A DNA stretch of 64,000 nt from a virus. Below the pieces are notes generated by a model, which had not been told where the DNA came from, did not search any database, and was given only the letters and a program-made list of their open reading frames with translations. This document shows, piece by piece, positions 7,984 through 58,711 of the stretch. A program made the translations under genes and the position numbers. Every line of letters begins with the position of its first letter. Within the stretch, counting starts at the first letter, position 1. The stretch covers positions 6,253-70,252 of IMG/VR virus record IMGVR_UViG_3300009184_000041, one strand, 5' to 3'.

Positions 7984-8002
7984 AAGCACGGACAATACAA
8001 AA

Positions 8003-30577: not shown

Positions 30578-30886
30578 ATGAATACTGATGCCCTAGTTGC
30601 TCACGCACGAGCAAGATTTGATCACGCAGCCGCACGACGGGTGCTGAAAGAAAAATATCAAGCAAAAATGGTGTTTGCCCATGGCGGCGGAATGTGGCGT
30701 GCTGGACCTGAATTGCTGACTGTGTTATTGGCCTGCGCACAAGACAAAGATGTTGTGATACTAGACTTGTACGAAACCCCAGTAAGGATCACAGTGACAG
30801 ACTTGTTTGCTAAGGCGCACGAACGTTGGCAAGAACAAATGAACGCATGGCAGGTAGAATGGCAAGATTTAAATCAAAAACGTTGA
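30578..30886 (+). CDS. Hypothetical protein (102 aa), first gene of the modification operon
   Basis: ORF directly after the promoter; TTGA overlap with the next gene. Confidence 0.7.
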   Translation: MNTDALVAHARARFDHAAARRVLKEKYQAKMVFAHGGGMWRAGPELLTVLLACAQDKDVVILDLYETPVRITVTDLFAKAHERWQEQMNAWQVEWQDLNQKR

Positions 30887-31680
30887 GTCAAGGTGTGTTG
30901 ATCTTTGCATTCAACAACGAAGCAACAGATTACATTGCCATGGCTGCTTGGAGTGCTCGAAACATTCGCAGGCATCTAAACCTGCCAGTGGCCTTGGTCA
31001 CCGACGATCCAGTGGCAGCCGCACAGTATGATTTTGAACACATCATTTCAACTGTGCCTGACACTGGTGGGTCACGATACTTTGCTGATTATGATGCCAC
31101 AGTGACTTGGCACAATGCCGGACGCATTAATGCTTACGAACTGTCGCCGTTTGAACAAACCTTGGTGCTGGATGCTGACTATGTGATAGCCAGTGATAGA
31201 TTATTGCAAGTACTAGAACTACCACAACAGTTTGCAGCCTTCAAGGATGGATTTGATCCCAGCAGTATGACCAATCTTGACACATTTGGTGCGTACAATA
31301 TGCCCATGTGGTGGGCCACTGTGATGATGTTCCGTCGTGGCAACATCAGCCAATACATATTTGATAGTATGCAAATGATACGCAACAACTGGCAACACTA
31401 CCGTGACTTGTATGGCATTCATCAAAGCAACTATCGCAATGACTATGCCTTGAGCATTGCCCTGGGCTTGGTAGCAGGTGCTGAACAATCAGTGCATGAG
31501 ATATTTTTTCCCATGCTCAACGTCATGCCAGATCATGGATTGACCTGGGTAGAACAAGATCATTATGAAATTGAATACACCAACACTGAAGGTCGACTCA
31601 AAACTCTGAGTTGGGCTGGATTAGATTTTCATGCCATGTGTAAAAAACACTTGGAGGTGATAGTTGCAGCCCATGGATGA
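30883..31680 (+). CDS. GT-A fold glycosyltransferase (GT8-like)
   Basis: GVLIFAFN...YELSPFEQTLVLDADY (DxD)...RNDYALSIA; likely TTG start at 30883 overlapping the upstream stop. Confidence 0.7.
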   Translation: MSQGVLIFAFNNEATDYIAMAAWSARNIRRHLNLPVALVTDDPVAAAQYDFEHIISTVPDTGGSRYFADYDATVTWHNAGRINAYELSPFEQTLVLDADYVIASDRLLQVLELPQQFAAFKDGFDPSSMTNLDTFGAYNMPMWWATVMMFRRGNISQYIFDSMQMIRNNWQHYRDLYGIHQSNYRNDYALSIALGLVAGAEQSVHEIFFPMLNVMPDHGLTWVEQDHYEIEYTNTEGRLKTLSWAGLDFHAMCKKHLEVIVAAHG

Positions 31681-32434
31681 ACAAGGTTACTTAATTGTTG
31701 CTGTCAACAGCGACACAGTGGATTATCAGGACTGTGCCCGTACCTTGGCCAAGACCATACGCTACTGGGATCCGTCAGCACGGATCTGTTTGATAACAGA
31801 CAGCGAATACACCGATCCCATATACGACCATCACAGACAACTAGTGCCGCAGGCCAATCCATTTGCCAATGACGCACAGTTATTCAAACTTACCCCATTT
31901 CGTGAAACCATCAAACTAGAAGCAGACATGTTTGTTGTAAGTCCCATTGCACACTGGTGGACGCAGTTTAGACACAAAGATGTTGTGATCTCAACAGGCT
32001 GTAGAGACTGGCAGGACCGTGTGAGCACAGCAAGACACTATCGCCGTGTATTTGATGCCAACAACTTGCCCGATGTTTACAATGCCATCACATACTGGCG
32101 GCGCAGTGAAACTGCTCGGGAGTTCTTTGGCTGGGTCAGCAACATATTTGCCAACTGGGCAGAGTTTAAGAAACTGTTAAAGTTTCCAGATGAGACGCCG
32201 TCCACTGACCTGGTATATGCCATGGCAGCAGAGATCATGGGCAGAGATCGTGTGACCTTGCCATTCAGTACATATCCACGAATTGTGCATATGAAACGAC
32301 ACATAGCAGGGACGCACACTGAAGCCTGGACTCGAGAACTAGTTTGGGAATATCAAGACATGCGCCTGCGTGTGCAAACTGTAGCACAAACAGGTGCGTT
32401 TCATTACAATGTCAAAGAATGGCGAGCACAATGA
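31664..32434 (+). CDS. GT-A fold glycosyltransferase (GT8-like paralog)
   Basis: GYLIVA...LTPFRETIKLEADM (ExD)...STDLVYAMA...HMK...FHY. Confidence 0.65.
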   Translation: MQPMDEQGYLIVAVNSDTVDYQDCARTLAKTIRYWDPSARICLITDSEYTDPIYDHHRQLVPQANPFANDAQLFKLTPFRETIKLEADMFVVSPIAHWWTQFRHKDVVISTGCRDWQDRVSTARHYRRVFDANNLPDVYNAITYWRRSETAREFFGWVSNIFANWAEFKKLLKFPDETPSTDLVYAMAAEIMGRDRVTLPFSTYPRIVHMKRHIAGTHTEAWTRELVWEYQDMRLRVQTVAQTGAFHYNVKEWRAQ

Positions 32435-32823
32435 AAAAAGTGTTTGTGAATGGCACATTTGATATCTTGCACCGCGGGCATTTGGAACTGTTGACATTTG
32501 CACGAAGTCAAGGCGACTGGTTGACAGTGGCCATTGACAGTGACCGGCGAGTACAACAATTAAAAGGCCACAGTCGGCCCATAAATGACGCAACAGAACG
32601 TGCCAACATGTTGCAACATTTGCGAGCCGTGGATCAAGTCTTGATATTTGACACTGATGCGGAATTGGTAGAATTTATACAACAACATGACGTCATGGTC
32701 AAGGGCAGTGATTACCGCGGTCGACCAATTGTGGGCCAAGACGGTTGCAAACAACTAATATTTTTTGAGGTAGTCAATGGATACAGCACAACAAACAAAA
32801 TACAAGATATTATTAATCGGTGA
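32431..32823 (+). CDS. rfaE: Nucleotidyltransferase, RfaE/HldE domain II-like
   Basis: NGTFDILHRGH (HxGH), VAIDSD..V..LKG..RPI, VKGSDY, GYSTT; ATG at 32431 (ATGA overlap). Confidence 0.85.
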   Translation: MKKVFVNGTFDILHRGHLELLTFARSQGDWLTVAIDSDRRVQQLKGHSRPINDATERANMLQHLRAVDQVLIFDTDAELVEFIQQHDVMVKGSDYRGRPIVGQDGCKQLIFFEVVNGYSTTNKIQDIINR

Positions 32824-33532
32824 TGCCTGTGAGGACATCTACACATACGGATACGTAAACCGCATCAGTCCAGAAGCACCTGTGCCTATCTTTGAACCAC
32901 ATTCGACCATATACCGAGATGGCATGGCTGGAAATGTTCGAAAGAATCTAGAAGCATTGGGGTGTGAGGTTGACTTCATACGTGGCAAAACTAGCCGAAA
33001 GAAACGCCTGATTGATGAACGTACCAAACAACAACTACTGAGACTTGATGAGGATGCTGTCAGTGAGCCTGTTACATTTGAAACAGCCATACCTCCCATA
33101 TACGATGCCATTGTGATCAGTGACTACAACAAAGGCACAGTCAGTTACGAACTAATTGAAGAACTGGTTGACGAAGTTGATGTGCCCATTTTTGTTGACA
33201 CAAAGAAAACAGATCTAGCAAGACTAGCCGGTTGTTATGTGAAGATCAATGCACTGGAAAAAAGTCGTGCAACAAGTTTTCCTGACCCAGAACATTTGAT
33301 TGTCACACACGGCGGCAATGGTGCTTTTTGGAATGGTTGGGTATATCCTGCTGAAATTGCAGGCGATGTTGTTGATGTATGTGGTGCAGGTGATACGTTT
33401 TTGGCAGCACTTGCGTACAAATTTCTAGTGACAAACAACATGCCCACCGCAGTAAAGTTTGCAAATCAAGCCGCAGCCGTCACGGTGCAACATGTGGGCG
33501 TTTATGCACCAAGATTGGACGAAATCAAATGA
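32777..33532 (+). CDS. rfaE: PfkB-family sugar kinase, RfaE/HldE domain I-like
   Basis: IGDACEDIY..G.VNRISPEAPVP, ISDYNKG, DVCGAGDTF. Confidence 0.85.
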   Translation: MDTAQQTKYKILLIGDACEDIYTYGYVNRISPEAPVPIFEPHSTIYRDGMAGNVRKNLEALGCEVDFIRGKTSRKKRLIDERTKQQLLRLDEDAVSEPVTFETAIPPIYDAIVISDYNKGTVSYELIEELVDEVDVPIFVDTKKTDLARLAGCYVKINALEKSRATSFPDPEHLIVTHGGNGAFWNGWVYPAEIAGDVVDVCGAGDTFLAALAYKFLVTNNMPTAVKFANQAAAVTVQHVGVYAPRLDEIK

Positions 33533-33888
33533 CAAGACTGACAGGCAGAGTAGAAAAAGGGTGGGGCTCAGAAGAAATTTGGGCAACCAATGATCAGTAC
33601 TGCGGCAAACTAATGCGGTTTAACACTGGCGCACGTTTCAGCATGCACTTCCATGCAGAGAAAGATGAGTCTTGGTATGTGCTCGACGGGCTGTTCCGAG
33701 TGGTGTTTATTGAAACAAAGGATGCCAGTCAACACGAAGCCATACTCAAACCTGGTACTACCTGGCGCAATCGTCCACTACAACCACATCAGTTGATCTG
33801 TATCGAAGCCGGTACTATCATTGAAGTCAGTACACCAGACTCAGTAGAAGACAACTACAGAGTAATGCCCGGAGATAGCCAAAAATGA
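33529..33888 (+). CDS. Cupin-fold sugar isomerase-like protein
   Basis: VEKGWGSEEIW...YCGK...FSMHFHAEKDESWY...PHQL...EVST.D...DNYRV. Confidence 0.75.
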   Translation: MTRLTGRVEKGWGSEEIWATNDQYCGKLMRFNTGARFSMHFHAEKDESWYVLDGLFRVVFIETKDASQHEAILKPGTTWRNRPLQPHQLICIEAGTIIEVSTPDSVEDNYRVMPGDSQK

Positions 33889-34202
33889 AATATATAATTG
33901 ACATTGACGGTACCGTATGTAACAATACCAACGGCAATTATCATGATGCTGTTCCGTTCGCGGATAGGATTGATCATTTTAACCGACTGTTTGATCAGGG
34001 TCATGAAATACACTATTGGACAGCCAGGGGAGGTAATACCGGCACTGACTGGACTGTCCTGACCGCACAACAATTTGCTGACTGGCAAGTAAAGTACACC
34101 AGTTTGAGTATGCACAAACCAACTTATGATATTTGGATTGATGACAAAGCAATCAATGTAGAAAATTATTTTGTAGAGAACGCAGCCAACGATGACACCT
34201 GA
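33885..34202 (+). CDS. HAD-superfamily phosphatase (capsule-biosynthesis type)
   Basis: DIDGT motif I, WTARG motif II, KP..DIWIDDKA motifs III/IV. Confidence 0.8.
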   Translation: MKYIIDIDGTVCNNTNGNYHDAVPFADRIDHFNRLFDQGHEIHYWTARGGNTGTDWTVLTAQQFADWQVKYTSLSMHKPTYDIWIDDKAINVENYFVENAANDDT

Positions 34203-34527
34203 AGAATTTTGGTCTATATTACATGCAGTGCCCGAACCCGCACAGCCATTTTATCGCTTGTACCACAATAACCAAGGCCGGCCACTATTCTACAGCATGG
34301 AGGATCGGCCTGGTACATACATTGAGATTGATCAAGAGACATTTGCTCGTAGCGCCACTAATGTGCGTGTAAAAAACGGTCGGTTAATAGAAATAACGTG
34401 GGCAACCACAACAAAATTGGTCCCTGGCAACTCTGGATCCCCTTGTCATCCTGACAATGTCGCTGTAATCGTTGCTGAGGACCAACCTCATATCAAATGG
34501 AGCAAACGCACATATGAATCAAATTGA
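34192..34527 (+). CDS. Hypothetical protein (111 aa)
   Basis: Overlap-coupled ORF in the operon; no motif recognised. Confidence 0.6.
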   Translation: MTPEEFWSILHAVPEPAQPFYRLYHNNQGRPLFYSMEDRPGTYIEIDQETFARSATNVRVKNGRLIEITWATTTKLVPGNSGSPCHPDNVAVIVAEDQPHIKWSKRTYESN

Positions 34528-35440
34528 CATTGCAGACTTGGACTGTGTATACCTAAGTTATGATGAACCTGAAAAAGAAGAGTTTTGGGTACGGATCAAA
34601 AACATGGTACCATGGGCCACCAGAGTTGATGGCATCAAAGGTTCTGATGCAGCACACAAAGCCGCAGCCACAGCCAGCACCACTGAACGTTTTATCTTGA
34701 TTGATGGTGACAACATTCCAGATGCAGCCTTCTTCAATCAAACACTGACGTTTGACACGCCAGACTGGGAACAGGCAGTGTTTCGTTGGCGTGCCAGAAA
34801 TCACATCAACGGACTCATGTACGGCAATGGTGGCTTGAGTTCATGGACCCGTGAGTTTGTGTTCAACATGCGCACACATGAAGCCACTGATGGACGTGTG
34901 GAAACAGAAGTGGAGTTTTGTTTTGATCCCTTGTACTGGCCCATGTATGACTGCTACTCGACTACGTATCCTAATGGGTCAGCATTTCAAGCATGGCGTG
35001 CTGGCTTCCGTGAAGGCGTAAAAATGTGCCTGAACCGAGGGGCAAAGCCCACAGTGGAAGAATTTCAACAACAAGTACATCAACGCAACCTAGATCATTT
35101 GACCATATGGCACAACATTGGTGCTGACGTCAACAACGGTCAGTGGGCCATGGCTGGCGCTAGACAAGGCACATACATGACCATGCTCACAAACTGGGAT
35201 CACCGACTGGTACAAGACTTTGATGCTCTAGCCGAGATATGGGAAACTGTAAAAGATGCAGAACCAAGGCTGTTGGGCGGGCGTGTGGCAGATGATTTGC
35301 ACGGTCAACTGGACTTGCCCATGGCCATATTTGAAGGCGAACAAAGTCGGTTTTTCAAACAACACTATCGATCAAACTGGCACAATCGTGGTCTCATGGT
35401 TAGAGAGATTGATGTTATCAGACAGCAAGAAGGCTGGTAA
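34514..35440 (+). CDS. GT-A fold glycosyltransferase-like protein
   Basis: VYLSYDEP...RVDGIKGSDAAHKAAA...FILIDGDN (DxD)...NGLMYGNGG...AWRAGFREGVKM; likely start 34514. Confidence 0.6.
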   Translation: MNQIDIADLDCVYLSYDEPEKEEFWVRIKNMVPWATRVDGIKGSDAAHKAAATASTTERFILIDGDNIPDAAFFNQTLTFDTPDWEQAVFRWRARNHINGLMYGNGGLSSWTREFVFNMRTHEATDGRVETEVEFCFDPLYWPMYDCYSTTYPNGSAFQAWRAGFREGVKMCLNRGAKPTVEEFQQQVHQRNLDHLTIWHNIGADVNNGQWAMAGARQGTYMTMLTNWDHRLVQDFDALAEIWETVKDAEPRLLGGRVADDLHGQLDLPMAIFEGEQSRFFKQHYRSNWHNRGLMVREIDVIRQQEGW

Positions 35441-36375
35441 TGTATATTTTAGGATGTACAAGTGATCGTATATGGAATATTCCAGCATTGATTCAATACC
35501 TTACACACCGCCAATGCCAACCGATTATCATTGATATCCAGCCCGAAGCAATATGTTTACATAATCTTGGATTGTATGATATACTAGATTGTTTTAATTT
35601 TGAATCAGTGACCATACACACTTGGAATCCGCTTGAAACACATCCTCAATATACCGTTAAGTATAAAGGTAAAAACTTTTGGTTTGATCGTCAAGCAGAT
35701 ATAACAGATACTCAACGTGAATACACTGGGGCAAAAACTTTTTTGTGCTTGTACCATAGGCCCACTGCCGGACGACTAGCACTAGCTGGATACCTACAGC
35801 AATATTATGCCAATTCGAGCCTTATTCATTTTAGCACTAGTACAACATATGACAATCTTATTCAATTTGAGTTTGATAAACTACTAAGTTGGCATTTGCC
35901 AAGTGTATCAAATGCAAGTAAATTATTGTCACAGTTGCCTATATTATTATTGTCTAATAATCAGTACACAAGCACTCAAGGATATTTTTATAATGATCCG
36001 TTAACTAACTTATATCGTGATATTTTAATTGATGTGGTAGTAGAAAGTCATGTGATTGGTAATACATTTTTTCCTACAGAAAAAACTGTAAGACCTATGT
36101 TGTTAGGAAAACCTTTTTTGGCATTTGCCAGTGTTGACTATTTGGCATATTTGCGTCAAATGGGATTTAGAACTTTTGCAGATTTTTGGTCTGAAGATTA
36201 CGACGGCTACGAGGGAAGAGAAAGATTGGTTAGAATGTTAGCAGTCATAGATGAAATATCTGCTCTGACTGCTAACCAGCGAGAAACAATGTTTTGGGAC
36301 ATGCAATATACTTTGCAACATAACCGCCAGATACTATTACAACAATCTTGGAACAATACCATTACAAAAATATGA
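35440..36375 (+). CDS. GT10-like (TEKTxxP family) putative glycosyltransferase, copy 1
   Basis: Y...LIDVVVES...FPTEKTVRPMLLGKPF...LRQMGFRTF..FWSEDYD...HN; visibly AT-rich. Confidence 0.55.
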   Translation: MYILGCTSDRIWNIPALIQYLTHRQCQPIIIDIQPEAICLHNLGLYDILDCFNFESVTIHTWNPLETHPQYTVKYKGKNFWFDRQADITDTQREYTGAKTFLCLYHRPTAGRLALAGYLQQYYANSSLIHFSTSTTYDNLIQFEFDKLLSWHLPSVSNASKLLSQLPILLLSNNQYTSTQGYFYNDPLTNLYRDILIDVVVESHVIGNTFFPTEKTVRPMLLGKPFLAFASVDYLAYLRQMGFRTFADFWSEDYDGYEGRERLVRMLAVIDEISALTANQRETMFWDMQYTLQHNRQILLQQSWNNTITKI

Positions 36376-37769
36376 ACAAAGGTGACGAATCAGTAGACAA
36401 CAAAAGCAAGTTTCTTAGCTCTGCCGAGCTGATGAAGGAACAACTGGGTCCTGCACTGTGCCTGGCAAAATGGAAACAGGTAAGTTTGCATTTACCCACC
36501 GGGCTCAACAACAGTTGTTATCATCCTCCCTTGCACCCAATTAATCCTGCAGAAATTGCAATAGATGTGTCAGCATTGCACAACACCGCACACAAAAAAC
36601 AACAACGCCAAATGATGTTGACAGGAGAAAAACCCACGGAATGCCAGTACTGCTGGAACATGGAAGATGCGGGCAAACTAAGTGACAGACACTATCGTTC
36701 AGGCGAGCCCTGGGCCTCAATGGATTTTGAATCAATAAAGACGAGCACAGGAGAAGAAAATGTTATCCCCAGTTATGTTGAAGTTAATTTTAATCACGCT
36801 TGTAATCTTAAGTGTAGTTATTGTAGCCCTCAGTTTTCGAGCTCATGGGCAGATGAGGTTGCACGACTGGGCGCTTTTCCTACTAGCAGTCCACACAACT
36901 CTCCTGATCATTTTATGGGCCAGCGTAGACCAATTCCAGTCAGAGACACCAACCCTTATGTTGAGGCCTTCTGGCAATGGTGGCCAGACTTGTACCCTCA
37001 CCTAAAACATTTTCGCATGACTGGTGGTGAGCCATTGCTGGACAAAAATACCTATCGTGTGTTTGATTACGTGTTGGCCATGCCTAATCCTCAACTACAT
37101 TTGAATGTCACAAGTAACTTTTCAGTAGATGAAAAGTCATGGCAAAAGTATTTGACCTATGTCAAAGCCATATGCGATGGACGCATTGAACACTTCATGC
37201 AGTATGTGAGCCTGGATGGTTGGGGCGAGCAAGCAGAGTACATGCGCCATGGCCTGGACTTTGACTTGCTGTGGGATCGAGTAAATCAATTCTTAACTGA
37301 AGTACCCAACTACTCAAGTCTTACATTTATCATCACAATGAACAACTTGAGTGTCACGAGTTTAGACAAACTGTTTGCTGGCATACTGGGCTTGAGAAAA
37401 GTGTACAGCACGGACTATCAACGTGTGTGGTTTGACACACCGGTGTTGCGCGAGCCTGCCTGGCAGAGTCTACAGATATTGCCCGAAAGTTATGCTGAAC
37501 GACTGGAATGGCTATGGGCTTGGATGGTGCGACAGATTGAAACTGAAGAGGCACCGTTCAAAGGATTCAAAGATTACGAACTGCACAGATTGGATCGTGA
37601 CATTGCTTGGATGCGATCAGCACAGTTAGAAAATCACCATCAAGCCAAGGCAGACTTTTATCGTTTCTTCAGTGAACATGATCGTCGCCGTGGCACAGAT
37701 TTCTTGAAGACATTTCCTGAAATGCGATCATGGTGGGAGGAGTGTGCATACCATGCTAGGCAATCGTAA
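36372..37769 (+). CDS. Radical SAM enzyme with N-terminal Twitch-like domain, copy 1
   Basis: CNLKCSYC and TGGEP; N-terminal CLAKW...SCYH...CQYCW; ATGA start at 36372. Confidence 0.85.
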   Translation: MNKGDESVDNKSKFLSSAELMKEQLGPALCLAKWKQVSLHLPTGLNNSCYHPPLHPINPAEIAIDVSALHNTAHKKQQRQMMLTGEKPTECQYCWNMEDAGKLSDRHYRSGEPWASMDFESIKTSTGEENVIPSYVEVNFNHACNLKCSYCSPQFSSSWADEVARLGAFPTSSPHNSPDHFMGQRRPIPVRDTNPYVEAFWQWWPDLYPHLKHFRMTGGEPLLDKNTYRVFDYVLAMPNPQLHLNVTSNFSVDEKSWQKYLTYVKAICDGRIEHFMQYVSLDGWGEQAEYMRHGLDFDLLWDRVNQFLTEVPNYSSLTFIITMNNLSVTSLDKLFAGILGLRKVYSTDYQRVWFDTPVLREPAWQSLQILPESYAERLEWLWAWMVRQIETEEAPFKGFKDYELHRLDRDIAWMRSAQLENHHQAKADFYRFFSEHDRRRGTDFLKTFPEMRSWWEECAYHARQS

Positions 37770-40186: not shown

Positions 40187-40189
40187 GCC

Positions 40190-40825
40190 ATGTTAAAAGC
40201 AACAATCATTTATTTGCCTGGTGCTGCCGGCAATATGTTATATAAAACATTAACTCTCAGCGAAAAAACAATCACTGGCACAGCTGGCAAAGATCTCAAC
40301 GAATATAATAAAAAACTAACTGCGGAAGAAAAGTTCAATCGATATTCAGTATGGGACAGTTACAATTGGAAAAAAGAAGAGACAAAAGATTGTTTAAATT
40401 TTAAACTGGGGTTGGTCGATTTTTATCATTATGAACAATGCCAGCTATGGCTGATAGATCATTGGCATCCTGTTGAATTCTACAATCAATACACGACAAA
40501 TATTTTGTGGGGCGATGTTTTCTATGAAAAAGTTATTTTAATTCAAGTTAATCCAGGCCACAGAGAGTTTTTGATAAACAATCAAACTGCCAAACAATAT
40601 TGCCTTGACTTTGATGATGAGTATCAACACCAACTCAAACTACAGAATATGTTTCAAGATCGACTGCTAGTGATTCCGTTTGATAGTTTTTTTGATAAAC
40701 AGGCATATCTGGACCAAATTATCCTATTGGACACAAAATTAAATTTAGAACTAGATATGGACCTGGTTGCAAAACTATGGCAAAATTGGTTTCGGGAAAG
40801 TTTTCGTCTGTGGAGATCTCAATGA
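40190..40825 (+). CDS. Hypothetical protein, possibly P-loop/sulfotransferase-like
   Basis: N-terminal IIYLPGAAGNML; AT-rich; lies between rSAM genes. Confidence 0.45.
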   Translation: MLKATIIYLPGAAGNMLYKTLTLSEKTITGTAGKDLNEYNKKLTAEEKFNRYSVWDSYNWKKEETKDCLNFKLGLVDFYHYEQCQLWLIDHWHPVEFYNQYTTNILWGDVFYEKVILIQVNPGHREFLINNQTAKQYCLDFDDEYQHQLKLQNMFQDRLLVIPFDSFFDKQAYLDQIILLDTKLNLELDMDLVAKLWQNWFRESFRLWRSQ

Positions 40826-49098: not shown

Positions 49099-49322
49099 AA
49101 TCAGCAAAACAACATCTAAAAGATTCGCAAATGGGCTACTGGACTCATCTGGCACACAGCTTTCGACAAAGCAATAGGCTGATAGCCATTGCTGTCAAAA
49201 GTTACATACATGGCATATTGCCTTGGTTCTTTGCCAACCGTGGACCTGTGGGGGTGTTCAAGATCTACAGAGAGATCCGTAACCAGCGCCACATTAGAAA
49301 AATACTAGACGGTCAAAGGTAA
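49095..49322 (+). CDS. Small protein, DUF6356-like
   Basis: HL....MGYWTHL...........SYIHGILPWFF pattern. Confidence 0.55.
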   Translation: MKSAKQHLKDSQMGYWTHLAHSFRQSNRLIAIAVKSYIHGILPWFFANRGPVGVFKIYREIRNQRHIRKILDGQR

Positions 49323-51494: not shown

Positions 51495-52641
51495 TTAACA
51501 TGCCCTGAAGTTCTTGCCATAATATTTGTTCAAACCCGCCGCCGTAAAAGTGATTCCAGTTGTGTTTGACAATGTCCCATGCGCTGTCAAATATGGCTTG
51601 ACGATATTCTCCCAACTCATCCAACAGTTTCAGCGTGTGCGCAATCTTTTCTATACGCTTTGAATCATCTGGTTCATCATCATAACTTTCGTCCCACAAG
51701 TCACCAAACGTTTGGAATCCATAACTGCGCAGATACCGCAAACTGCCTTGTGTGCCCACAATCACAAACGGCATACCCAGGGCAATGGGTTTGAATGTCT
51801 TTTCAGTCAAGTGGTGTCTGCGTCCTGTGGCCACAGTTTCGGTAACCAAGTATAACAGACTCTCAGCAGATTGGTCAAACAAACTGAGCCAACATGAATG
51901 CATGGGATGATCGGTTTCACCCTCAAAGTTTCGTGGCAATGATTGTTGGGCAAACACTGTTTCAATGTCAGGATACTTGTTTTTAAGAGGTTGTACAGCA
52001 TCTAGTATGGCAATGTTTTCTGCAGGGCACACAGCAGGGCATGACACGTGATTGTTGTGCATGCCTAATTTAAAAATCCAGTACAGCATTTCCAATCTAT
52101 GCTTGCGCTCTCCGGCCACAATGCGATTGGGTGCTAAAAAAGTACGAGTGATTTGTCGTTGTTTGGGCGGAGTAATTAAAAAAGTCTTGTCATATCCGCG
52201 ATACCAATCCAGTGCTGCCCAACCGTGAAAAAAATAATAGTAATGTTGCCAACCAAATTTTTTACACACTGTATCTACAGTGTCACTGTCACGTTCACTG
52301 GTAATAATTGCGCCGACTGTTCGATTGGTCTTTAAGGATTTGCTGTAGCCAGAATCTAAAGCCATCTGATTCAATTGATTGCGACGATCTATCACATTGT
52401 GTAAACTTTGATTTTTCACTACAACTTCTTCAAACGTAGGCATGTGTACGTTCAAATGAATAGGCTCTTGATCCCATAATAGTGTATAATTGTGTTCAAC
52501 TAGATCATCGCTGCCATAATTAACTAGACTGTCAGGATCTGTTCTACCAAAAGGTTCACACCACCATAATCTCACACCAGGGTGATGACGTTTGATCCAA
52601 GGCCAGATTGTGTTATCATAAATCTCATCTATTCTAAGCAT
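51454..52641 (-). CDS. GT10-like (TEKTFKP family) putative glycosyltransferase, copy 5
   Basis: FLAPNR...HR...SLLYLVTET...LTEKTFKPIALGMPF...GFQTFGDLWDESYD. Confidence 0.55.
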   Translation of the reverse strand: MLRIDEIYDNTIWPWIKRHHPGVRLWWCEPFGRTDPDSLVNYGSDDLVEHNYTLLWDQEPIHLNVHMPTFEEVVVKNQSLHNVIDRRNQLNQMALDSGYSKSLKTNRTVGAIITSERDSDTVDTVCKKFGWQHYYYFFHGWAALDWYRGYDKTFLITPPKQRQITRTFLAPNRIVAGERKHRLEMLYWIFKLGMHNNHVSCPAVCPAENIAILDAVQPLKNKYPDIETVFAQQSLPRNFEGETDHPMHSCWLSLFDQSAESLLYLVTETVATGRRHHLTEKTFKPIALGMPFVIVGTQGSLRYLRSYGFQTFGDLWDESYDDEPDDSKRIEKIAHTLKLLDELGEYRQAIFDSAWDIVKHNWNHFYGGGFEQILWQELQGMLNDIEFDSGPNSRG

Positions 52642-54643
52642 GTTTGACGTATTTTATTTTAGTGATGGGCGTAAGCCAAATTTGTTCCCACACGAGCGAT
52701 CGGTGGATTCCGTCCAGCATGCACAGAAGTTGAGCCGCACACGATTTTTCTGGATTGTCCATTACTTAGCGGATTACACAGACTGGGACTGGCTTTTTGA
52801 ACCCCTACCCTGGCAAGCAGATCAACGGCATGCCTGGGCCAGTCAATGGCAGTCAGATTCGGGCACATACCTTGTGCCATGTGCAGGCTATGAACACACA
52901 AACTATCACACAGATCGTGTCATAACAAGACTCAGCAGCCGTGATGGTTGGCACATACCCTCAAACATAGACACAGACAGTTTTGACTTTTCATGGCATC
53001 CTTTGCCCAGCGATCACTATCGGCATCACTTTCCCACACAATGGCAGACAGCAGGCGGACCTGTGTATAATTCGGGCGCTGACACAATCAAAATGGAAAC
53101 CGCCCAGTATGCAGTAGCAAGGCCTACCAAAAAGTGCTGGACTGTGCCTGCAGGAGTTGAACCTGTAGATCAGTCATGGCACCCAAATCCTTTTGATCCA
53201 CCCTACCGATATCAGTTCGGCACACAGCATCAACGCACTGGTGGCCCAGTTTACACTGTGCCTGGTGCAACAGAAGTAAAATATGTGGATCAGATACGTG
53301 CCACAACCAACAGAGTGGCCACTGCCGTATATGAAATAGATCACATGTGTGGGTCAGCAGGGCAAATATCTGGTACCACACGCACTGTGCGTTACTTTGA
53401 CAACTACAGAGATACCTTGATACGCATTGCCAAGAGCATAGGTACCGAACATGAGTTTGTGTGGGTATGCTCAAGTATTTGTGATTACACTGGCTTTGAT
53501 TTTTCGTGGCATCCTGAGCAATGGCAGGCCACAATGTTGCATGTGTTCCGATCTAACGATCAAAAGTTTGGTGATACATTCTTCATGCATGTGCCTACCT
53601 TTGCTGTGAGAGCAGAAAAGAAAGAACTGCTGGAATGGTATGACATAAACTTTGTTGACGTCAGTGTGCCACGCAATGCCATGCCTGTGATTGTGCATAG
53701 CGGTGACAGTCAAGTTGACGCTGTAAAGAACATAGAGTGGACAGGACCCTTGGCCACCTTTACCAACTACGATTACGTGCCCGGCGATCTTGTGACTGTG
53801 CCACTGTGGCGTGAACAAACCAAAGCCATTGTGCCCATCAGTGACGGTGCTGGCACAGTTGTAGTGCCACGTACCGCTGTGCCTTATATCAAAACACAGT
53901 TGTATGACTACGCTCATATAGACCGTACACAACGCCTGCTGAAAGATCCCCTGCTGGACATTGTGTTCATCAGCAATGGTGAAATAAATGCCGACATTTA
54001 CTTTGAACATTTGGAATACACAGCCCACGACGCAAATCATAAAAATCTCATGCATCATGTGTCGGGCGTGAATGGCCGTGTGGCAGCATATCAAGCGGCT
54101 GCCAGACAAAGCACTACGCCTTGGTTTTTTGCTGTGTTTGCCAAACTAGAAGTCACTAGAGATTTTGACTGGTCCTGGCAACCTGATCGCATGCAACAGC
54201 CCAAACACTATATTTTTCATGCACACAATCCTGTGAACGGATTGGTATATGGGCACCAAGCCATGATTGCTTACAACAAGCAGCTGGTGTTGGAGAATAC
54301 TGGGCAAGGATTAGACTTTACCTTGGACCAACCACATGAAGTTGTGCCCATTGTGTCGGGCACAGCCATGTATCATGATTCAGACTGGATGTGCTGGCGT
54401 ACTGCATTCCGTGAAGTGCTCAAGCTCATGAGTGGTCCGCCGGATGTAGAAAACGAATATCGTTTACAGCAATGGCTCCTGGTTGATACCACAGAAGGGC
54501 AATGGAGTCGCAAAGGTGCAGAAGATGGTGTGGAGTACTATGACTCAGTTGCGGGCGACTTTGCGGCGCTGAAAAAGAGTTATGAGTGGGAGTGGTTGGC
54601 CACGTATGCGTTTGTCAAACGGAATCTATTAACGAATCAATAA
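52640..54643 (+). CDS. Multi-domain GT-A-like protein, paralog of 34514..35440, with degenerate repeats
   Basis: C-terminal DIVFISNGE...SGVNGRVAAYQAAA...NGLVYGH...CWRTAFREVLKL; five (F/W)D(F/W/Q)SW.P-type motifs. Confidence 0.6.
   Translation: MFDVFYFSDGRKPNLFPHERSVDSVQHAQKLSRTRFFWIVHYLADYTDWDWLFEPLPWQADQRHAWASQWQSDSGTYLVPCAGYEHTNYHTDRVITRLSSRDGWHIPSNIDTDSFDFSWHPLPSDHYRHHFPTQWQTAGGPVYNSGADTIKMETAQYAVARPTKKCWTVPAGVEPVDQSWHPNPFDPPYRYQFGTQHQRTGGPVYTVPGATEVKYVDQIRATTNRVATAVYEIDHMCGSAGQISGTTRTVRYFDNYRDTLIRIAKSIGTEHEFVWVCSSICDYTGFDFSWHPEQWQATMLHVFRSNDQKFGDTFFMHVPTFAVRAEKKELLEWYDINFVDVSVPRNAMPVIVHSGDSQVDAVKNIEWTGPLATFTNYDYVPGDLVTVPLWREQTKAIVPISDGAGTVVVPRTAVPYIKTQLYDYAHIDRTQRLLKDPLLDIVFISNGEINADIYFEHLEYTAHDANHKNLMHHVSGVNGRVAAYQAAARQSTTPWFFAVFAKLEVTRDFDWSWQPDRMQQPKHYIFHAHNPVNGLVYGHQAMIAYNKQLVLENTGQGLDFTLDQPHEVVPIVSGTAMYHDSDWMCWRTAFREVLKLMSGPPDVENEYRLQQWLLVDTTEGQWSRKGAEDGVEYYDSVAGDFAALKKSYEWEWLATYAFVKRNLLTNQ
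52651..52679 (-). promoter_or_regulatory. Candidate sigma70 promoter, TTGGCT-17 bp-TAAAAT, inside the + strand gene
   Basis: On the - strand; -10 ends 9 nt before the ATG at 52641. Confidence 0.35.
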
Positions 54644-55712
54644 CATACTCAACTTCCAAGTCTGTCAGTTCAGGATAGATAGGAAGTGAAAGGCATCTAC
54701 GTGCCAGACTGCTGCCAGCACTTAGCAAATCCGGACACGGATAGTGTTGATATGCTGGCAATTCATGCATGGGTGTTGCATAGTGTACTCGGGTTTCAAC
54801 ACCACGCAAGGCAAGATTGCGTTGTAAGATGTCTCGATTGTCCGCATGGATCACAAACTTGTGAAAGCAATGTGTTTCAAAGTTTGAATCATCAATTAAA
54901 CAAGTGACATCTGGATGTTTTTTTAACATTTCCACCCAGTGATAAGCAATGGTGCGTCTGCGTTGTTGCCACTGATCAATGTAGCGAGTTTTTACCAACA
55001 TCTGCGCACAGTCAATCTCACTCATTCTGCTGTTGGTGCCTGTCTCAGCATGATTGGTACGCTTGCCATTGCTGACCCAGTTCCGAGCAAACTCCATCAA
55101 GTTGCGACTGGCAGTGACTATGGCACCACCATTGCCATAGTTGGCTAGATTTTTTGTGGGGTCAAAACTGATGGCGCAATCGCCCGCACGTTGACATTTG
55201 TTGCTGAGCCAATGTTGTGCACCATCTTCTATAATGGGATGAGTTAATGACCACACACTTTGTTTCATTTCGTTAAGTGCTTGACCATACAACCCCACAG
55301 CACAAATAGCTTGTATATCTGTGCTGTGCGCAAGTTTGGTCATGTCCATGATGCCATATTGATCGGTGTCCACAATGTGCAGGTTCCACCCTGCTCGAAC
55401 AAATGCGTTGAGGGTGGCTGGATACGTCAAGGTAGGTACAGCCACTGTAGGTGTGTCAGGTCGACCTGCTTGCAGCATGTGCCACTCAGCAATGATTTCC
55501 AAGGCCTGTGTGCCAGAGTGGCAGGTCACAGCGTAGGGTTGGTGGTTGCGACGAGCCAGCCAATCTTCAAATTCATAGGTATAGTTACCACTCATGAGTT
55601 GACCTGAACGCAACACAGTATCTGTTGCGTCCAAGACCTCGGTGCGGAGATTGTTATACTGTCGTCGGATTCCAATAAACGGAACTGTTAAGCCATTCAA
55701 TTTATTCTCCAA
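54615..55712 (-). CDS. DegT/DnrJ/EryC1/StrS PLP-dependent sugar aminotransferase
   Basis: HSGTQAL, IIEDGAQ, SFDPTKNL..YGNGG, GTNSRMSEI, SLPIYP. Confidence 0.9.
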   Translation of the reverse strand: MENKLNGLTVPFIGIRRQYNNLRTEVLDATDTVLRSGQLMSGNYTYEFEDWLARRNHQPYAVTCHSGTQALEIIAEWHMLQAGRPDTPTVAVPTLTYPATLNAFVRAGWNLHIVDTDQYGIMDMTKLAHSTDIQAICAVGLYGQALNEMKQSVWSLTHPIIEDGAQHWLSNKCQRAGDCAISFDPTKNLANYGNGGAIVTASRNLMEFARNWVSNGKRTNHAETGTNSRMSEIDCAQMLVKTRYIDQWQQRRRTIAYHWVEMLKKHPDVTCLIDDSNFETHCFHKFVIHADNRDILQRNLALRGVETRVHYATPMHELPAYQHYPCPDLLSAGSSLARRCLSLPIYPELTDLEVEYVIDSLIDSV

Positions 55713-56716
55713 AATACACCATTCTCTCCTCTGTTGGGGAATAAATCTTTAGGTGTATCTTCTCGGTGTACGTCTAGCGTAAAGCAATGCCAACCTCCGT
55801 CCCAGAAACTTCTAGTTCGTAGATCAAAAAAGTGAACGGTAATACCACGTTTGTCTAGCCATTGAGTCAAAGGAGGATAATCTTTCATAGCAACAACATT
55901 CTTTTCATCAAGCACTAACATATTAACTTCAAATACTGTTTCTCTAAAGTTACCTATCCAATTTTGTGCTACTGTTTGTAAATGTTGGTCAAATGCTTTA
56001 TTTCCGTCTATTGATAAGTCATTGGCCGTCCATTTTTTTGTATGTCGAAAATTATGTAAATTATTAGGAATTTTAAATACTTCCCATCCTGGAAAACTTT
56101 GACTATAGTCAGTTTTATAATGGGTTGATACAATCAGACCAGGCGACACCGGGCAGAAAACACCATCACTGTGTCCGTCGGTGTTGGATATGTTAACTCT
56201 ATATTTACGCCCAAGTTGATTAACTAGACACTCACAAACAAACCCCCAAACATGTTTGTGACTCTCAATATCTATAATTATATCTTTACCTAGTCTCACC
56301 AGTGCTGGTGGGTGTACACAATTTATAGGTTGATCTTTGGGTGTCAATACATCTAACCCCTGTTGTTGATAATACTCTAACCAATGATACCATGGATCAA
56401 TTTTTAAATTATTATGTAAACTATATAGAGTTTTGTCTAACACCAAGTAATCATCTCTTGGTGTTACTGGAGGCTTGGACAATGTACCATTATCATTGAT
56501 ATGATTATCAATGCTTGTAAACACAGGTCGTCTTACTACAATTCCTCTTGATTCTAAAAATGTCTGTAGCCGCCTGGTGTCTTCTTGAGTCCACGCAGTT
56601 ATTTGTCTAAATGGGTCAGCAATCTCGTTGGGCAAATGATCGTAATACGACTCTGGATAGCAGTCACCAAGCCATACTTCTCGAAGTGGTGTAAATCCAA
56701 AGTTCGAATTGATCAT
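55697..56716 (-). CDS. Amidinotransferase, copy 2
   Basis: PLREVWLG, TPRDD, GHSDGVF, WDGGWHCFT; AT-richer than copy 1. Confidence 0.85.
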   Translation of the reverse strand: MINSNFGFTPLREVWLGDCYPESYYDHLPNEIADPFRQITAWTQEDTRRLQTFLESRGIVVRRPVFTSIDNHINDNGTLSKPPVTPRDDYLVLDKTLYSLHNNLKIDPWYHWLEYYQQQGLDVLTPKDQPINCVHPPALVRLGKDIIIDIESHKHVWGFVCECLVNQLGRKYRVNISNTDGHSDGVFCPVSPGLIVSTHYKTDYSQSFPGWEVFKIPNNLHNFRHTKKWTANDLSIDGNKAFDQHLQTVAQNWIGNFRETVFEVNMLVLDEKNVVAMKDYPPLTQWLDKRGITVHFFDLRTRSFWDGGWHCFTLDVHREDTPKDLFPNRGENGVFWRIN

Positions 56717-57675
56717 TTGCCAGCCCAGTAAACGCTATTTGTAAGCCACTCATAATACTTTTGGAATCCTTGTTCTACGTCTACTTTGGGATCAAAACTC
56801 AAGATGGTTCTAGCTCGATCAATGTTTAATGCGCCACGGCTGGGAAAGTCTGCGTCCTTGTCACGCACTTCAATAGTGCCTTTGCCCACAATCTTCACAA
56901 TCATTTCTGCTGCTTCCAACAGACTCACTGAATGTGACTTGGTAATGTTGAATGTCATGTTGCGGCACATGATGCGTGTGGCGGCAGCAACAATGCCATC
57001 GGCAGCATCATCCACATAGGTAAAGTCTAAGGTTTCATTTGCTCCATTAACTCGGAGCACTCCGCCGCGCATTGCTGTGAGCATGAATTTGGCAACGACT
57101 CGGTCTTCAACATCAAGTGGCCCATAAACAGCACTGGGACGGATAATAACATACTCAAAGCCACAACGGCGACTATAATCTTTGACAAGGTCTTCTCCAC
57201 ATAGTTTCATTATTCCATACTGTCCTTGCGGACGGCATTCGTCATCTTCCAGCACTTGGTCTTCAAAGTCTCCGTACACCATACTGCTACTGATGTACAC
57301 AAATCGTTCAATCCGGTGTTTTTTGGCACTCTCAAGCAAGTTGATCAGGCCACGCATCATGACATCTGCGCCATGAGCAGGGTTGGCATTGACCACTTTC
57401 TGTCGGGGAAAACTGGCACAGTGGATAATAACTTTTGGCTGTTCTTTACCAATCACATAGTCCACAGCGTCTGTGTTTGTGATGTCTGTGTTGTACACAG
57501 GATGATTGTTGATCTTGGCCAAGCGTTCGGCCATCAAGTAGTTTATTTCTGCTTGTGGAATGATACCATAAGTGGTCTTGGTATCCATGATCATGGTTTT
57601 CTCACCACGTGCTTGTAGACGTTGTACTATGTTGTGACCAATAAGGCCAAGGCCGCCTGTTACTAAAAATGTCAT
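56713..57675 (-). CDS. NAD-dependent epimerase/dehydratase (extended SDR)
   Basis: TGGLGLIG, ISSSMVYG, YGIMK (YxxxK), RPSAVYGP, DFTYVDD. Confidence 0.88.
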   Translation of the reverse strand: MTFLVTGGLGLIGHNIVQRLQARGEKTMIMDTKTTYGIIPQAEINYLMAERLAKINNHPVYNTDITNTDAVDYVIGKEQPKVIIHCASFPRQKVVNANPAHGADVMMRGLINLLESAKKHRIERFVYISSSMVYGDFEDQVLEDDECRPQGQYGIMKLCGEDLVKDYSRRCGFEYVIIRPSAVYGPLDVEDRVVAKFMLTAMRGGVLRVNGANETLDFTYVDDAADGIVAAATRIMCRNMTFNITKSHSVSLLEAAEMIVKIVGKGTIEVRDKDADFPSRGALNIDRARTILSFDPKVDVEQGFQKYYEWLTNSVYWAGK

Positions 57676-58391
57676 ACTAGATTTCTTTCTTTTATAAATG
57701 GTACAATCACTTGTTCAACAAACAATTTGTGTTGTGGGTTGCTGGGATGGTAGTCATTAGGTACTGGGAATTCCAAGCCAGAATGATCTCTACACCATTC
57801 GTATTCTCCAATAACTGGCAAAAAATTTGTAAAATCAATTTCGTTATAAAGATGAGCAGTGTCGGCAAAAGTTTTTACATAGTCGGGTATAACCTCTCCA
57901 GTATACGTAGTCATAAAATATTTAATTCCGTGTTGTTTTAAAAACCACTGAGTACGTAGTATATGTTCAAGTGTATAAATCAATGACCCGGTCCGAGTGT
58001 GAAACTCTGTATAGTATAGTTTGGCATGATGCATTTTCCACCCATTATTCGCAATGGCCCAAGCACCCGGGCTATCTTTTATAAATTTTATGGGATTTTC
58101 CATCCACCCATCTTCTTTTAACACTTCAGGTACTCGTTGAACGTAGAAATCATGTCTATCGGGACCCGACCACATGATGCCCACCAATATGTCTTCAACG
58201 GCAGTGTGTTTCAATGTCTCTGTGACTTGATATATCACTCTGCGACTGATCAAGCCATTTCCCTGACTGCCCATTGCTGTGCTGATATGTTCATAGTCAG
58301 GCAGTGTAATGGCAAGGTGTTTAGGCCAAGTTTTAGCCCATGGACTCTTACATTCGCTAAAACTGCACCCGCCTGTGATCAAAGTTTTCAT
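57672..58391 (-). CDS. SGNH/GDSL-like hydrolase or acyltransferase
   Basis: GGCSFS (block I), GSQGN, DYHPS (block V); AT-rich. Confidence 0.6.
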   Translation of the reverse strand: MKTLITGGCSFSECKSPWAKTWPKHLAITLPDYEHISTAMGSQGNGLISRRVIYQVTETLKHTAVEDILVGIMWSGPDRHDFYVQRVPEVLKEDGWMENPIKFIKDSPGAWAIANNGWKMHHAKLYYTEFHTRTGSLIYTLEHILRTQWFLKQHGIKYFMTTYTGEVIPDYVKTFADTAHLYNEIDFTNFLPVIGEYEWCRDHSGLEFPVPNDYHPSNPQHKLFVEQVIVPFIKERNLV

Positions 58392-58711
58392 TTGAATTTC
58401 AACCTAAAAAATGTTTGATTGGGTTCACTAAGTCGGGCCATGATTCGATATCGATGACCGTAACTGCTGTGATCTGCTTGACGTATCCAATAAGGTGATT
58501 CCACAGCATGAGCCATCACAAACTGGCCTGCTTCACTTTCTTGCCATTCCCAAATTGGCTGTGCCGCATACAAGTCTGGATCTTCAACATCGCCCATGGT
58601 GAACTCATACACACAGACGTCACTAAAACGCACTACCTGGTCATCGACGATTTTGTATTCTGGGTCTTGGTATTGTTTGTATTCAGAGTATTGATTGCGT
58701 GTTGTTGACAT
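58388..58711 (-). CDS. Hypothetical protein (107 aa)
   Basis: FTMGDVEDPDLYAA...FFRLKFK; first gene after the promoter. Confidence 0.7.
   Translation of the reverse strand: MSTTRNQYSEYKQYQDPEYKIVDDQVVRFSDVCVYEFTMGDVEDPDLYAAQPIWEWQESEAGQFVMAHAVESPYWIRQADHSSYGHRYRIMARLSEPNQTFFRLKFK

Follow-up and report, generated by a model that had tools for sequence, protein, structure and literature searches.

Giant viruses glycosylate their fibrils or capsids and mycobacteriophages their virions, and virus-encoded clusters of this type bring together their own soluble sugar-nucleotide and transferase genes near structural genes. A comparable arrangement is found in the stretch of viral DNA analysed here, a 64-kb window (the whole stretch under study, positions 6,253 to 70,252 of the 70-kb IMG/VR virus record IMGVR_UViG_3300009184_000041, estimated to be ~20% complete), in which 30 packed open reading frames (ORFs), labelled g01-g30, and a 33-codon gene fill positions 30578-58711; the modelled fold of one of the products, g25, matches Mimivirus R699 and PBCV-1 A64R. 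Compared with the known virus glycosylation clusters, that of the window is larger, forms the fixed core of a lineage and adds five radical S-adenosylmethionine enzymes (rSAMs) with an N-terminal twitch domain, a predicted guanidino branch and a carbamoyltransferase-peptide pair. We tentatively propose, with a probability of roughly 0.45, that this block is a soluble cytoplasmic glycan-building and -tailoring system of a freshwater jumbo myovirus lineage, most likely decorating the phage's own fibres.

Gene clusters of related content have been reported in other phages. In the available portions of the reports, pelagimyophages carry cassettes of glycosyltransferase, rfaE and radical SAM genes in the hypervariable tail-fibre region, for which modification of the host O-chain was favoured (PMC7029224), and the genes of the amidinotransferase cluster of cyanophage S-SCSM2R were termed 'antibiotic synthesis genes' by the authors, who found the amidinotransferase product of ORF266 in the virion proteome (PMC12801897). 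Other phage clusters put hexose, N-acetylhexosamine, heptose or 3-deoxy-D-manno-octulosonate (Kdo) on 5-hydroxymethylcytosine (5hmC), heptose being installed via a kinase/HAD (haloacid dehalogenase) protein, a cytidylyltransferase and a GT-B enzyme (bioRxiv 10.1101/2023.12.21.572611), and arabinosylated 5-hydroxycytosine is made through a ThyA homologue (PMC13326640). As far as these texts go, the general kind of cluster is already in print at annotation level, and the first-pass annotation of the window, in stating that it knew of no characterised phage pathway with the full enzyme set, had overlooked the S-SCSM2R and pelagimyophage cassettes; the statement itself stood, in that a literature search, supplementary gene tables lying outside it, found no chemical characterisation of this enzyme set in a phage. 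The DNA hypermodification clusters resemble the window in their soluble GT-B/GT-A and sugar-nucleotide genes, including a heptose route, whereas enzymes supplying a handle on the base were not found in three near-complete relatives of the window (G002-G004; 340-364 kb, one with terminal repeats).

Conservation of the gene block

The phage origin assumed at the outset is borne out by the IMG/VR virus record and by the virion proteins that fill the left half of the window, namely a baseplate hub, a baseplate wedge, an ORF of 5169 amino acids (aa) and three fibre-region proteins. The hub matches phrog_13211 and the wedge phrog_10646 (E 7e-277), the wedge protein sharing 32-34% identity with its counterparts in Atu_ph07, Rak2-like and other myoviruses of 350-490 kb. 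Megablast of 20 kb of the window against isolated phages gave no match, and the G+C content is even along the window (0.39-0.48). Neighbouring ORFs of the block mostly overlap by 1-17 bases or are spaced by 3-34 bases, as computed from their coordinates, in agreement with the ~30 contiguous coupled genes of the first-pass annotation, which had nevertheless missed the 33-codon gene, a 31st that exactly occupies the gap between g20 and g21. The genes g01-g21 lie on the same strand as the structural genes and continue them without break; the opposite strand carries g22-g24 and g26-g30, co-directional with thyX, with g25 inverted among them. The thyX gene, which precedes g30 by 16 bases in the same orientation, looks ordinary by sequence (Thy1 match, E 6e-45), and its arrangement with g30 is kept in all relatives.

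An IMG/VR scan seeded with g22 retrieved 135 related stretches, of which the 80 kept encode proteins 80-96% identical to g22. Within 10 kb on either side of this gene the order thyX, g30, g28, g26, g25, g24, g23, g22, g21, g20, g19, g16, g15, g13 was recurrent. The three near-complete relatives are collinear with the window through the giant ORF, the fibre genes, g01-g03, g08, g09, g11-g13, g15, g16, (g18), g19-g26, g28, g30 and thyX. Because this gene order recurs in the three relatives and in the IMG/VR loci of the g22- and g19-seeded scans, the synteny in related large phage genomes that the first-pass annotation had put forward as a check is there, and the cluster is confirmed, at the level of sequence, as real and more than chance. 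The g19-seeded scan yielded 32 loci, with g22 present in 21 of the 23 that had room beyond g21 (L128 and L131 are without it, as is L095), and even in these loci g22 outdoes the seed gene in conservation, e.g. 87% against 80% in L123.

A subset of the genes is variable (g04-g07, g10, g14, g17, g18, g27 and g29). The HldE-like kinase gene g05 was found in one of five related records, elsewhere in that genome, and g04-g07 occupy the position that they have in the window only in L130, while L110 and L132 have a g27-like gene at another place. By these comparisons g04-g07 (HldE, cupin, HAD), g27 and the DUF6071 gene g29 are accessory, and the block as a whole is a fixed core of the lineage and not a hypervariable cassette. 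The lineage itself, a freshwater clade of jumbo myoviruses without cultured members, is abundant: at least 6739 environmental relatives (protein clusters) are retrieved with the g20 profile and 4036 with that of g03; the 120 listed for either gene are all annotated as 'hypothetical protein' at most and carry no Pfam domain. The stretch is present in DNA sequencing runs from several studies that carry freshwater or lake labels, with no RNA run among those listed.

The carbamoyltransferase and its micropeptide

The g21 product scores 122.4 bits against Carbam_trans_N (Pfam cut-off 24) and 161.4 against Carbam_trans_C (cut-off 27), and 127.3 bits against the NodU equivalog NF041651, whose cut-off of 1000 is not reached; its sequence places it among the TobZ/NodU carbamoyltransferases at family level only. 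Both Pfam domains are common to TobZ, NodU, CmcH and g21, and g21 comes with a dedicated 33-residue peptide. This near-invariant peptide, paired with the carbamoyltransferase, is the newly recognised element of the block. It is encoded in 103 of 117 loci, as a single copy per genome, and its last 21 residues are near-invariant, with Y17, L21, D28, P29 and Y32 fully so. A scan for the tail K-R-D-P-F-I-Y-K followed by a stop returned at least 120 stretches, 80 of which were used; among the 63 viral contigs that were testable, having at least 1.2 kb downstream, 57 had a carbamoyltransferase homologue (32-68% identity to g21) starting within 1.5 kb downstream on the same strand. An N-twitch rSAM was seen in only 22 of the 80 peptide stretches, the stretches being short.

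The pairing extends beyond the lineage. In Ralstonia phage RsoM2USA an unannotated small ORF ending in RKQDPFIYK (L001, ~19026-19136) lies between RsoM2USA_201 and _200, two genes upstream of a carbamoyltransferase gene (46% identity to g21) and together with an N-twitch rSAM gene (51% to g13) and three DUF6071 genes, which flank the rSAM, peptide and carbamoyltransferase genes. This phage was the only one of seven loci examined to satisfy a strict search for the peptide motif. A weaker match lies upstream of the carbamoyltransferase gene (48%) in a marine single-virus contig, where amidinotransferase, peptide, carbamoyltransferase and N-twitch rSAM are again found together. The peptide was not found within 1.5 kb of three cyanophage/pelagiphage carbamoyltransferases (28-37% identity), and tblastn of the micropeptide against isolated phages gave no match.

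Modelling of the complex between peptide and g21 gave a median score of 0.66 (runs 0.72, 0.66 and 0.00), against 0.00 for the best of three controls; in the calibration of this score, 58 of 80 solved complexes attained the 0.66 mark, against 2 of 110 mismatched pairs. Contacts agree between the runs to at least 46%, the partner having a predicted local distance difference test (pLDDT) score of at least 50, and the modelled interface joins peptide residues 9-33 with residues 10-221 of the N-terminal domain of g21. The models support binding of the peptide to the carbamoyltransferase, of which it may be a partner or a substrate.

Radical SAM enzymes

The five Twitch rSAMs first reported for the block (g11, g13, g15, g16 and g19) were recovered as members of NF033640 (N_Twi_rSAM), with 267-389 bits against a curated cut-off of 170. 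The CxxxCxxC motif (C155, C159, C162), GGEP and the N-terminal C47, C65, C108 and C111 are invariant in all five, and the SPASM/twitch match precedes the radical SAM core (Pfam; g15 and g16), so that, as in NF033640, an N-terminal four-Cys twitch domain lies ahead of the CxxxCxxC core. No experimentally tested function is known for NF033640, and a literature search by family name found no paper on it. The three near-complete relatives each hold 9-11 copies above the cut-off. Four to six further N-twitch rSAM genes are scattered outside the cluster in each of these genomes, one pair in G003 adjoining g17-like and g18-like genes.

BtrN, the 2-deoxy-scyllo-inosamine dehydrogenase of butirosin biosynthesis, is a twitch rSAM with its twitch domain at the C-terminus. 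It has in common with the enzymes of the block the radical SAM core, a single auxiliary Fe-S 'twitch' domain and a sugar-related pathway context; unlike in BtrN, all five carry this domain at the N-terminus, on the opposite side of the core, for which reason their membership among BtrN-like dehydrogenases was rejected, and no BtrN model appeared among the NCBIfam matches of the cluster proteins. The route first envisaged, oxidation by a BtrN-like Twitch rSAM followed by transamination, is not supported, the succession g28, g26, g22 offering a simpler encoded route to an amino sugar.

The linkage of N-twitch rSAMs with sugar enzymes and with carbamoyltransferases recurs in unrelated phages. They also occur beside glycosyltransferase genes in Vibrio phage K566, where four of them are interleaved with two GT8 genes and a GT4-like gene in a 19-kb stretch with no peptide match. 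A single-protein scan of a genome contig collection found only four loci, all in two metagenome-assembled genomes (MAGs) and probably representing phage contigs or distant arrays, which yielded no informative bacterial context. One MAG, labelled Haliscomenobacter (G006; L095, L096), contributes contigs of 183 and 148 kb with the phage cluster (g15 79-84% identity) plus fibre genes; these are probably of phage origin and were binned together with the MAG, and what they say about the host is a weak hint at best. Another, labelled uncultured Elusimicrobia (G007; loci L097-L101), has 91 NF033640 matches at E <=0.001, most of them above the cut-off and many in tandem arrays, and the six fusion proteins scanned from it (495-1078 aa) carry tetratricopeptide (TPR) repeats ahead of the twitch-rSAM unit.

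Amino-sugar, amidinotransferase and HldE-like genes

In a phmmer search of solved chains in the PDB, g22 matched AGAT (E 1.4e-15), HsvA (2.4e-12), StrB1 (5.7e-11) and SxtG (2.5e-9), and g27 matched the same set of chains in a PDB sequence search, with AGAT best (E 1.6e-8). The resemblance covers the whole length of g22 and g27, at low identity, with the catalytic Cys and His-x-Asp invariant: the C-terminal Cys and His-x-Asp of g22 align to GGFHCWT and HIDATF of AGAT, and the motifs DGH.D and GG..C.T.D were found in all 82 amidinotransferase sequences examined. Because g22 stands in a context of DegT, short-chain dehydrogenase/reductase (SDR) and two GT-B genes, its sequence neighbourhood suggests an amino sugar as the predicted substrate, rather than glycine, an inosamine or a polyamine. 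A g22-like gene (ORF266, 28% identity to g22) lies beside kdsA and kdsB in S-SCSM2R. In that phage a separate cluster brings an 'inosamine amidinotransferase' together with an rSAM, glycosyltransferases and a DegT-like gene. Since only two enzyme families are in common, the analogy with a saxitoxin-like pathway was discarded.

The DegT/StrS assignment of g26 rests on 183.6 bits against PF01041 (cut-off 19.8), its best equivalog, PseC, reaching 128.7 of the 423.5 bits asked for. This aminotransferase, the two amidinotransferases, the carbamoyltransferase and the two SDRs had all been recognised in the first-pass annotation. So had the HldE-like protein split over two ORFs, whose halves score below the equivalog cut-offs (g04 with TIGR02199, 115.8 bits against 181.5; g05 with TIGR02198, 133 against 345), and the cupin and HAD proteins, the HAD match being weak and both again under the curated equivalog cut-offs; what had escaped it is that this module is accessory.

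Glycosyltransferase-like proteins

Five proteins (g10, g12, g18, g23 and g24) share a C-terminal block with the invariant pattern E..TEK..P..F..G..F..D (alignments A1 and A3). They have no Pfam match, including Glyco_transf_10, and the TEK profile finds no PDB sequence; the TEK family is a separate, unannotated phage family. A Foldseek search with the AlphaFold2 model of g23 returned SdgB, T4 beta-glucosyltransferase, OtsA and SenB, and a wide search with VIA-align placed H. pylori alpha-1,3-fucosyltransferase first (5zoi; Z 12.2, 258 aligned residues, root-mean-square deviation (rmsd) 4.7), with 46 chains at Z >=8 and nearly all of the 50 rows listed being GT-B glycosyltransferases. The model thus has the two-Rossmann GT-B fold. 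Its fold is similar to those of the GT10 alpha-1,3-fucosyltransferases and T4 beta-glucosyltransferase, at a sequence identity of only 8-10%, and the E...TEK block of g23 resembles the GT10 nucleotide-sugar motif.

The AlphaFold2 model of g25 (pLDDT 76, predicted TM-score 0.42) gave Foldseek matches that include Mimivirus R699, LH3, ArnC and PBCV-1 A64R, and its residues 435-580 reach VIA-align Z 10-11.7 to GT-A structures, nucleotidyltransferases scoring equally there. Its Atlas relatives are viral hypothetical proteins only, plus one weak GT2 lead at 0.85. The g09 protein aligns with residues 474-649 of g25 (BLASTP E 2e-4), and by eye the place of the DxD motif is taken by IDGD in g09 and AKLE in g25. 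Seven of the ~nine glycosyltransferase-like proteins first proposed are supported by these sequence comparisons and models, as five GT-B TEK paralogues and two GT-A-like proteins (g09 and g25).

A proposed pathway and its alternatives

In the pathway that we propose, the 4,6-dehydratase-like SDR g28 and then the aminotransferase g26 would yield a nucleotide-activated 4-amino-6-deoxyhexose, to the amine of which g22 would move the amidino group of arginine, giving a guanidino sugar. The GT-B proteins (g23, g24 and their paralogues g10, g12 and g18), together with the GT-A-like proteins (g09 and g25), would assemble an oligosaccharide on a cytoplasmic acceptor, the five N-twitch rSAMs would edit the sugars by predicted radical chemistry and g21, with its 33-residue partner peptide, would add a carbamoyl group. 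A guanidino- or carbamoyl-bearing glycan is a fair inference because sugar-nucleotide, aminotransferase, amidinotransferase and carbamoyltransferase functions adjoin one another and are conserved. The assembly may well be cytoplasmic: Kyte-Doolittle profiles of g01-g30 (19-residue windows) have a maximum of no more than 1.44, with no membrane segment in any cluster protein, and therefore no flippase, polymerase or polyprenyl-phosphate transferase is encoded by the cluster itself. The acceptor is the least certain step. The most likely choice is fibre or virion proteins of the phage itself, whose genes come just before the block in the same direction, because the block directly follows the fibre genes on the structural-gene strand, because it is a fixed core of the lineage, because a g22-like protein was, according to the available text, detected in the virion proteome of S-SCSM2R (PMC12801897) and because the known base-handle enzymes were not found in the three near-complete relatives.

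A number of observations weigh against this reading. Product, acceptor and enzyme activity are all predicted from sequences or models, and every cluster enzyme scored missed its NCBIfam equivalog cut-off, so the sugar and its nucleotide carrier are guesses. The amidinotransferases g22 and g27 remain without a Pfam match when E values up to 5 are admitted, and Asp254, the third member of the AGAT triad, finds no clear counterpart, the g22 alignment starting one residue past it and g27 having His at that place. No tool tied g02 or g03 to any glycosyltransferase family, and with them the original count of ~nine falls to seven. The g23 model ties with T4 beta-glucosyltransferase, a DNA-modifying enzyme (1c3j; Z 12.0, 290 aligned residues, rmsd 5.6), and the genes g22-g24 and g26-g30 are co-directional with thyX and nucleotide-side genes, which fits an early or DNA-related role equally; the search of the relatives with a Tet_JBP profile was uninformative, its control matching in no genome. 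Finally, substrates that are peptides or proteins and not sugars are hinted at by the fusions of N-twitch rSAMs to TPR repeats in the Elusimicrobia-labelled MAG and by the conserved micropeptide. TPR arrays usually bind proteins or peptides, and a non-sugar rSAM substrate stays in play for that reason.

The tailored cationic glycan could instead be put on the bases of the phage DNA, shielding the genome from host nucleases, which we regard as unlikely. The g23 model matches the T4 beta- and alpha-glucosyltransferases (Z 10.7 for the latter) as well as it does fucosyltransferases, all the cluster enzymes are soluble, thyX keeps its place next to g30 in every relative, half of the block shares its strand, and the HldE-like pair recalls the phage clusters reported, in the text at hand, to put heptose on 5hmC (bioRxiv 10.1101/2023.12.21.572611). 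However, PF00303 (ThyA-like) was found in none of three records and PF00145 (C5-methylase) in none of four, the controls matching in both cases, the three near-complete relatives have no TGT/DpdA (PF01702), again with matching controls, thyX has an ordinary look, the HldE-like module is accessory, and ~9 transferases with 9-11 rSAM copies per genome far exceed the known DNA pathways. The micropeptide could, on the other hand, be the scaffold or precursor of a peptide-templated product, as in mycofactocin, PQQ or the glycocins, with the rSAMs modifying its DPFIYK tail, carbamoyl- and amidinotransferases acting on Tyr or Lys and glycosyltransferases extending it. In the case of mycofactocin, a SPASM rSAM forms the molecule out of a C-terminal Val-Tyr, and glycosylation follows. 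Such a role, which seems to us rather improbable, would suit the near-invariance of the C-terminal 21 residues and the single copy per genome, the neighbourhood of peptide, rSAM and carbamoyltransferase genes in RsoM2USA and the marine virus contig, the modelled placement of residues 29-33 against the N-terminal domain of g21, and the TPR fusions. A narrower version, to which we give no better odds, makes the peptide the primer of the product, its tail being carbamoylated by g21, edited by the N-twitch rSAMs and extended with guanidino sugars by the glycosyltransferases. Yet the peptide is paired specifically with the carbamoyltransferase (57 of 63) and was seen with an N-twitch rSAM in only 22 of 80 stretches, short as these are; Pfam scans of the cluster gave no match to a peptidase, an RRE or PqqD; K566 has an array of rSAMs and glycosyltransferases with no peptide match in its stretch; and a strongly basic helix on an acidic enzyme would fit a plain structural subunit just as well.

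Modified sugars might also alter the O-antigen or capsule of the infected cell through the host's lipid carrier and export, blocking superinfection or releasing progeny, in line with the interpretation put on pelagimyophage and cyanophage cassettes, for the former as O-chain modification in the accessible part of that study (PMC7029224), and with the position of the g22-like gene of S-SCSM2R next to kdsA and kdsB; this we hold to be improbable, as the cluster encodes no membrane-associated step, and a fixed lineage core with g22 conserved at 80-96% fits a phage-internal target better than a fast-changing host surface. A diffusible aminoglycoside-like or other secondary metabolite, inhibiting for instance competitors or host translation, is very improbable indeed. 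The enzyme set does resemble aminoglycoside and saxitoxin tailoring (StrB1 and SxtG matches; the TobZ/NodU family), and the S-SCSM2R trio was termed 'antibiotic synthesis genes' in the available text (PMC12801897), but Pfam and NCBIfam scans found no cyclitol synthase, exporter or resistance gene in the block, the presence of ~7-9 transferases speaks for a polymer or for decoration of a macromolecule, and slow, multi-step synthesis of something diffusible would bring a lytic phage little.

Should virions carry the product, as in the fibre-directed pathway preferred here, it would amount to a phage coat of new chemistry, a cationic guanidino/carbamoyl glycan made via oxygen-independent radical chemistry, in one of the most abundant lake giant-phage lineages. 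It would also provide the first functional context for the large NF033640 family, extend amidinotransferases beyond toxin and antibiotic pathways and bring to light a micropeptide-dependent carbamoyltransferase. Were the peptide instead a primer, the phage would make a glyco-peptide or cofactor-like molecule of which no viral example has been described, and the first substrate of NF033640 would be at hand.

Gene inventory and other features of the window

Table 1. Features of the gene block and its surroundings, with positions in the window; percentages are amino acid identities and the three relatives are G002-G004.
Feature	Position	Strand	Description
5169-aa ORF	11458..26967	+	Between baseplate wedge and fibre genes
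g01	30578..30886	+	102 aa, conserved hypothetical; first gene past the fibre genes; no family match; 57-62%, same position in the three relatives
g02	30826..31680	+	284 aa; paralogue of g03 (E 1e-8); no Pfam, PHROG or PDB match; conserved in relatives
g03	31664..32434	+	256 aa; paralogue of g02; phrog_1903 (unknown function), E 5.8e-10
g04	32344..32823	+	HldE domain II-like nucleotidyltransferase, accessory; PF01467 E 6e-17; variable among relatives
g05	32777..33532	+	HldE domain I-like sugar kinase, accessory; PfkB E 4.9e-18
g06	33529..33888	+	Small cupin, accessory; Cupin_2 E 8e-6 and WbuC cupin E 2.7e-5, both under cut-off
g07	33885..34202	+	Small HAD-like phosphatase, weak, accessory; HAD_PNKP E 0.0097; capsule phosphatase TIGR01689 E 1.3e-4, under cut-off
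g08	34192..34527	+	111 aa, conserved hypothetical; no family match; 49-59% in the three relatives
g09	34472..35440	+	322 aa, GT-A-like via relation to the g25 C-terminal domain; 74-78% in the three relatives
g10	35440..36375	+	GT-B TEK-family paralogue, variable; aligns with g23 and g24
g11	36348..37769	+	N-terminal-twitch radical SAM; NF033640 321 bits
g12	37744..38856	+	GT-B TEK-family paralogue; in 22/32 g19-seeded loci
g13	38729..40186	+	N-terminal-twitch radical SAM; NF033640 290 bits; 51% to a gene of Ralstonia phage RsoM2USA
g14	40190..40825	+	211 aa, variable; no family match; in 1/80 loci
g15	40777..42084	+	N-terminal-twitch radical SAM; NF033640 389 bits; SPASM 47-112, radical SAM core 150-278
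g16	42081..43298	+	N-terminal-twitch radical SAM; NF033640 341 bits; SPASM 9-78
g17	43333..44298	+	Extended SDR, GDP-fucose-synthase-like, variable; Epimerase E 1.5e-45; NF047922 117 bits (cut-off 500); in 3/32 loci
g18	44295..45236	+	GT-B TEK-family paralogue, variable
g19	45233..46510	+	N-terminal-twitch radical SAM; NF033640 267 bits
g20	46503..47528	+	341 aa, conserved; in 31/32 g19-seeded loci
Micropeptide MNWIRRLWARITLEIRYRKKLKELRKRDPFIYK	47525..47626	+	33 residues, basic; ORF overlaps g20 stop and g21 start
g21	47623..49098	+	491 aa, TobZ/NodU-family carbamoyltransferase; Carbam_trans_C E 1.9e-47, Carbam_trans_N E 3.7e-35
75-codon ORF	49095..49322	+	Overlaps g21 stop and fills the convergent gap; doubtful standing, in only 6/117 loci
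g22	49313..50350	-	Amidinotransferase, most conserved gene of the block
g23	50337..51494	-	GT-B glycosyltransferase, TEK family; AlphaFold2 model pLDDT 91
g24	51454..52641	-	GT-B TEK-family paralogue; in 77/80 loci
g25	52640..54643	+	667 aa, multidomain; GT-A domain ~435-580, W-H-P repeats at the N-terminus
g26	54615..55712	-	DegT/StrS-family sugar aminotransferase; PF01041 E 8e-54
g27	55697..56716	-	Second amidinotransferase, accessory; 30% to g22; not at this position in the three relatives
g28	56713..57675	-	Extended SDR, 4,6-dehydratase-like; Epimerase E 3e-42; TIGR01181 (dTDP-glucose 4,6-dehydratase) 118.9 bits (cut-off 365)
g29	57672..58391	-	DUF6071, accessory; PF19547 31.1 bits (cut-off 27), only match of the protein earlier called SGNH
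g30	58388..58711	-	107 aa, conserved hypothetical, directly downstream of thyX; no family match; in 61/80 loci
thyX	58728..59408	-	Thymidylate synthase gene thyX, Thy1 match
HNH endonuclease	61549..62874	-	441 aa; phrog_1314, E 1e-107

Seven proteins of the block (g01, g02, g08, g09, g14, g20 and g30) had no match in Pfam, PHROG, NCBIfam or PDB sequence searches; for g20, searches with Pfam, PHROG and PDB profiles gave no match, and there was no Atlas match at 0.85. The genes g24 and g25 are divergent with overlapping start codons (52640-52641), and g25 and g26 converge with an overlap of 29 bases (54615-54643); g25 is likewise inverted in every relative examined. In one relative (L012) the g24 orthologue (7686-8873) has an internal stop codon.

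The sole Pfam match of the 5169-aa ORF is one FG-GAP repeat. It is conserved piecewise in three relatives, at 41-60% identity, and could represent a giant fibre or an adhesin and serve as acceptor of the glycan. The HNH endonuclease gene lies near the cluster in relatives too, at a shifting distance. The T4 late-promoter word TATAAATA has two matches in the window, against 1.5 expected by chance, and none within the cluster; the two words are located at 7569-7576 and 27737-27744, in short gaps just upstream of the structural genes starting at 7582 and 27766.

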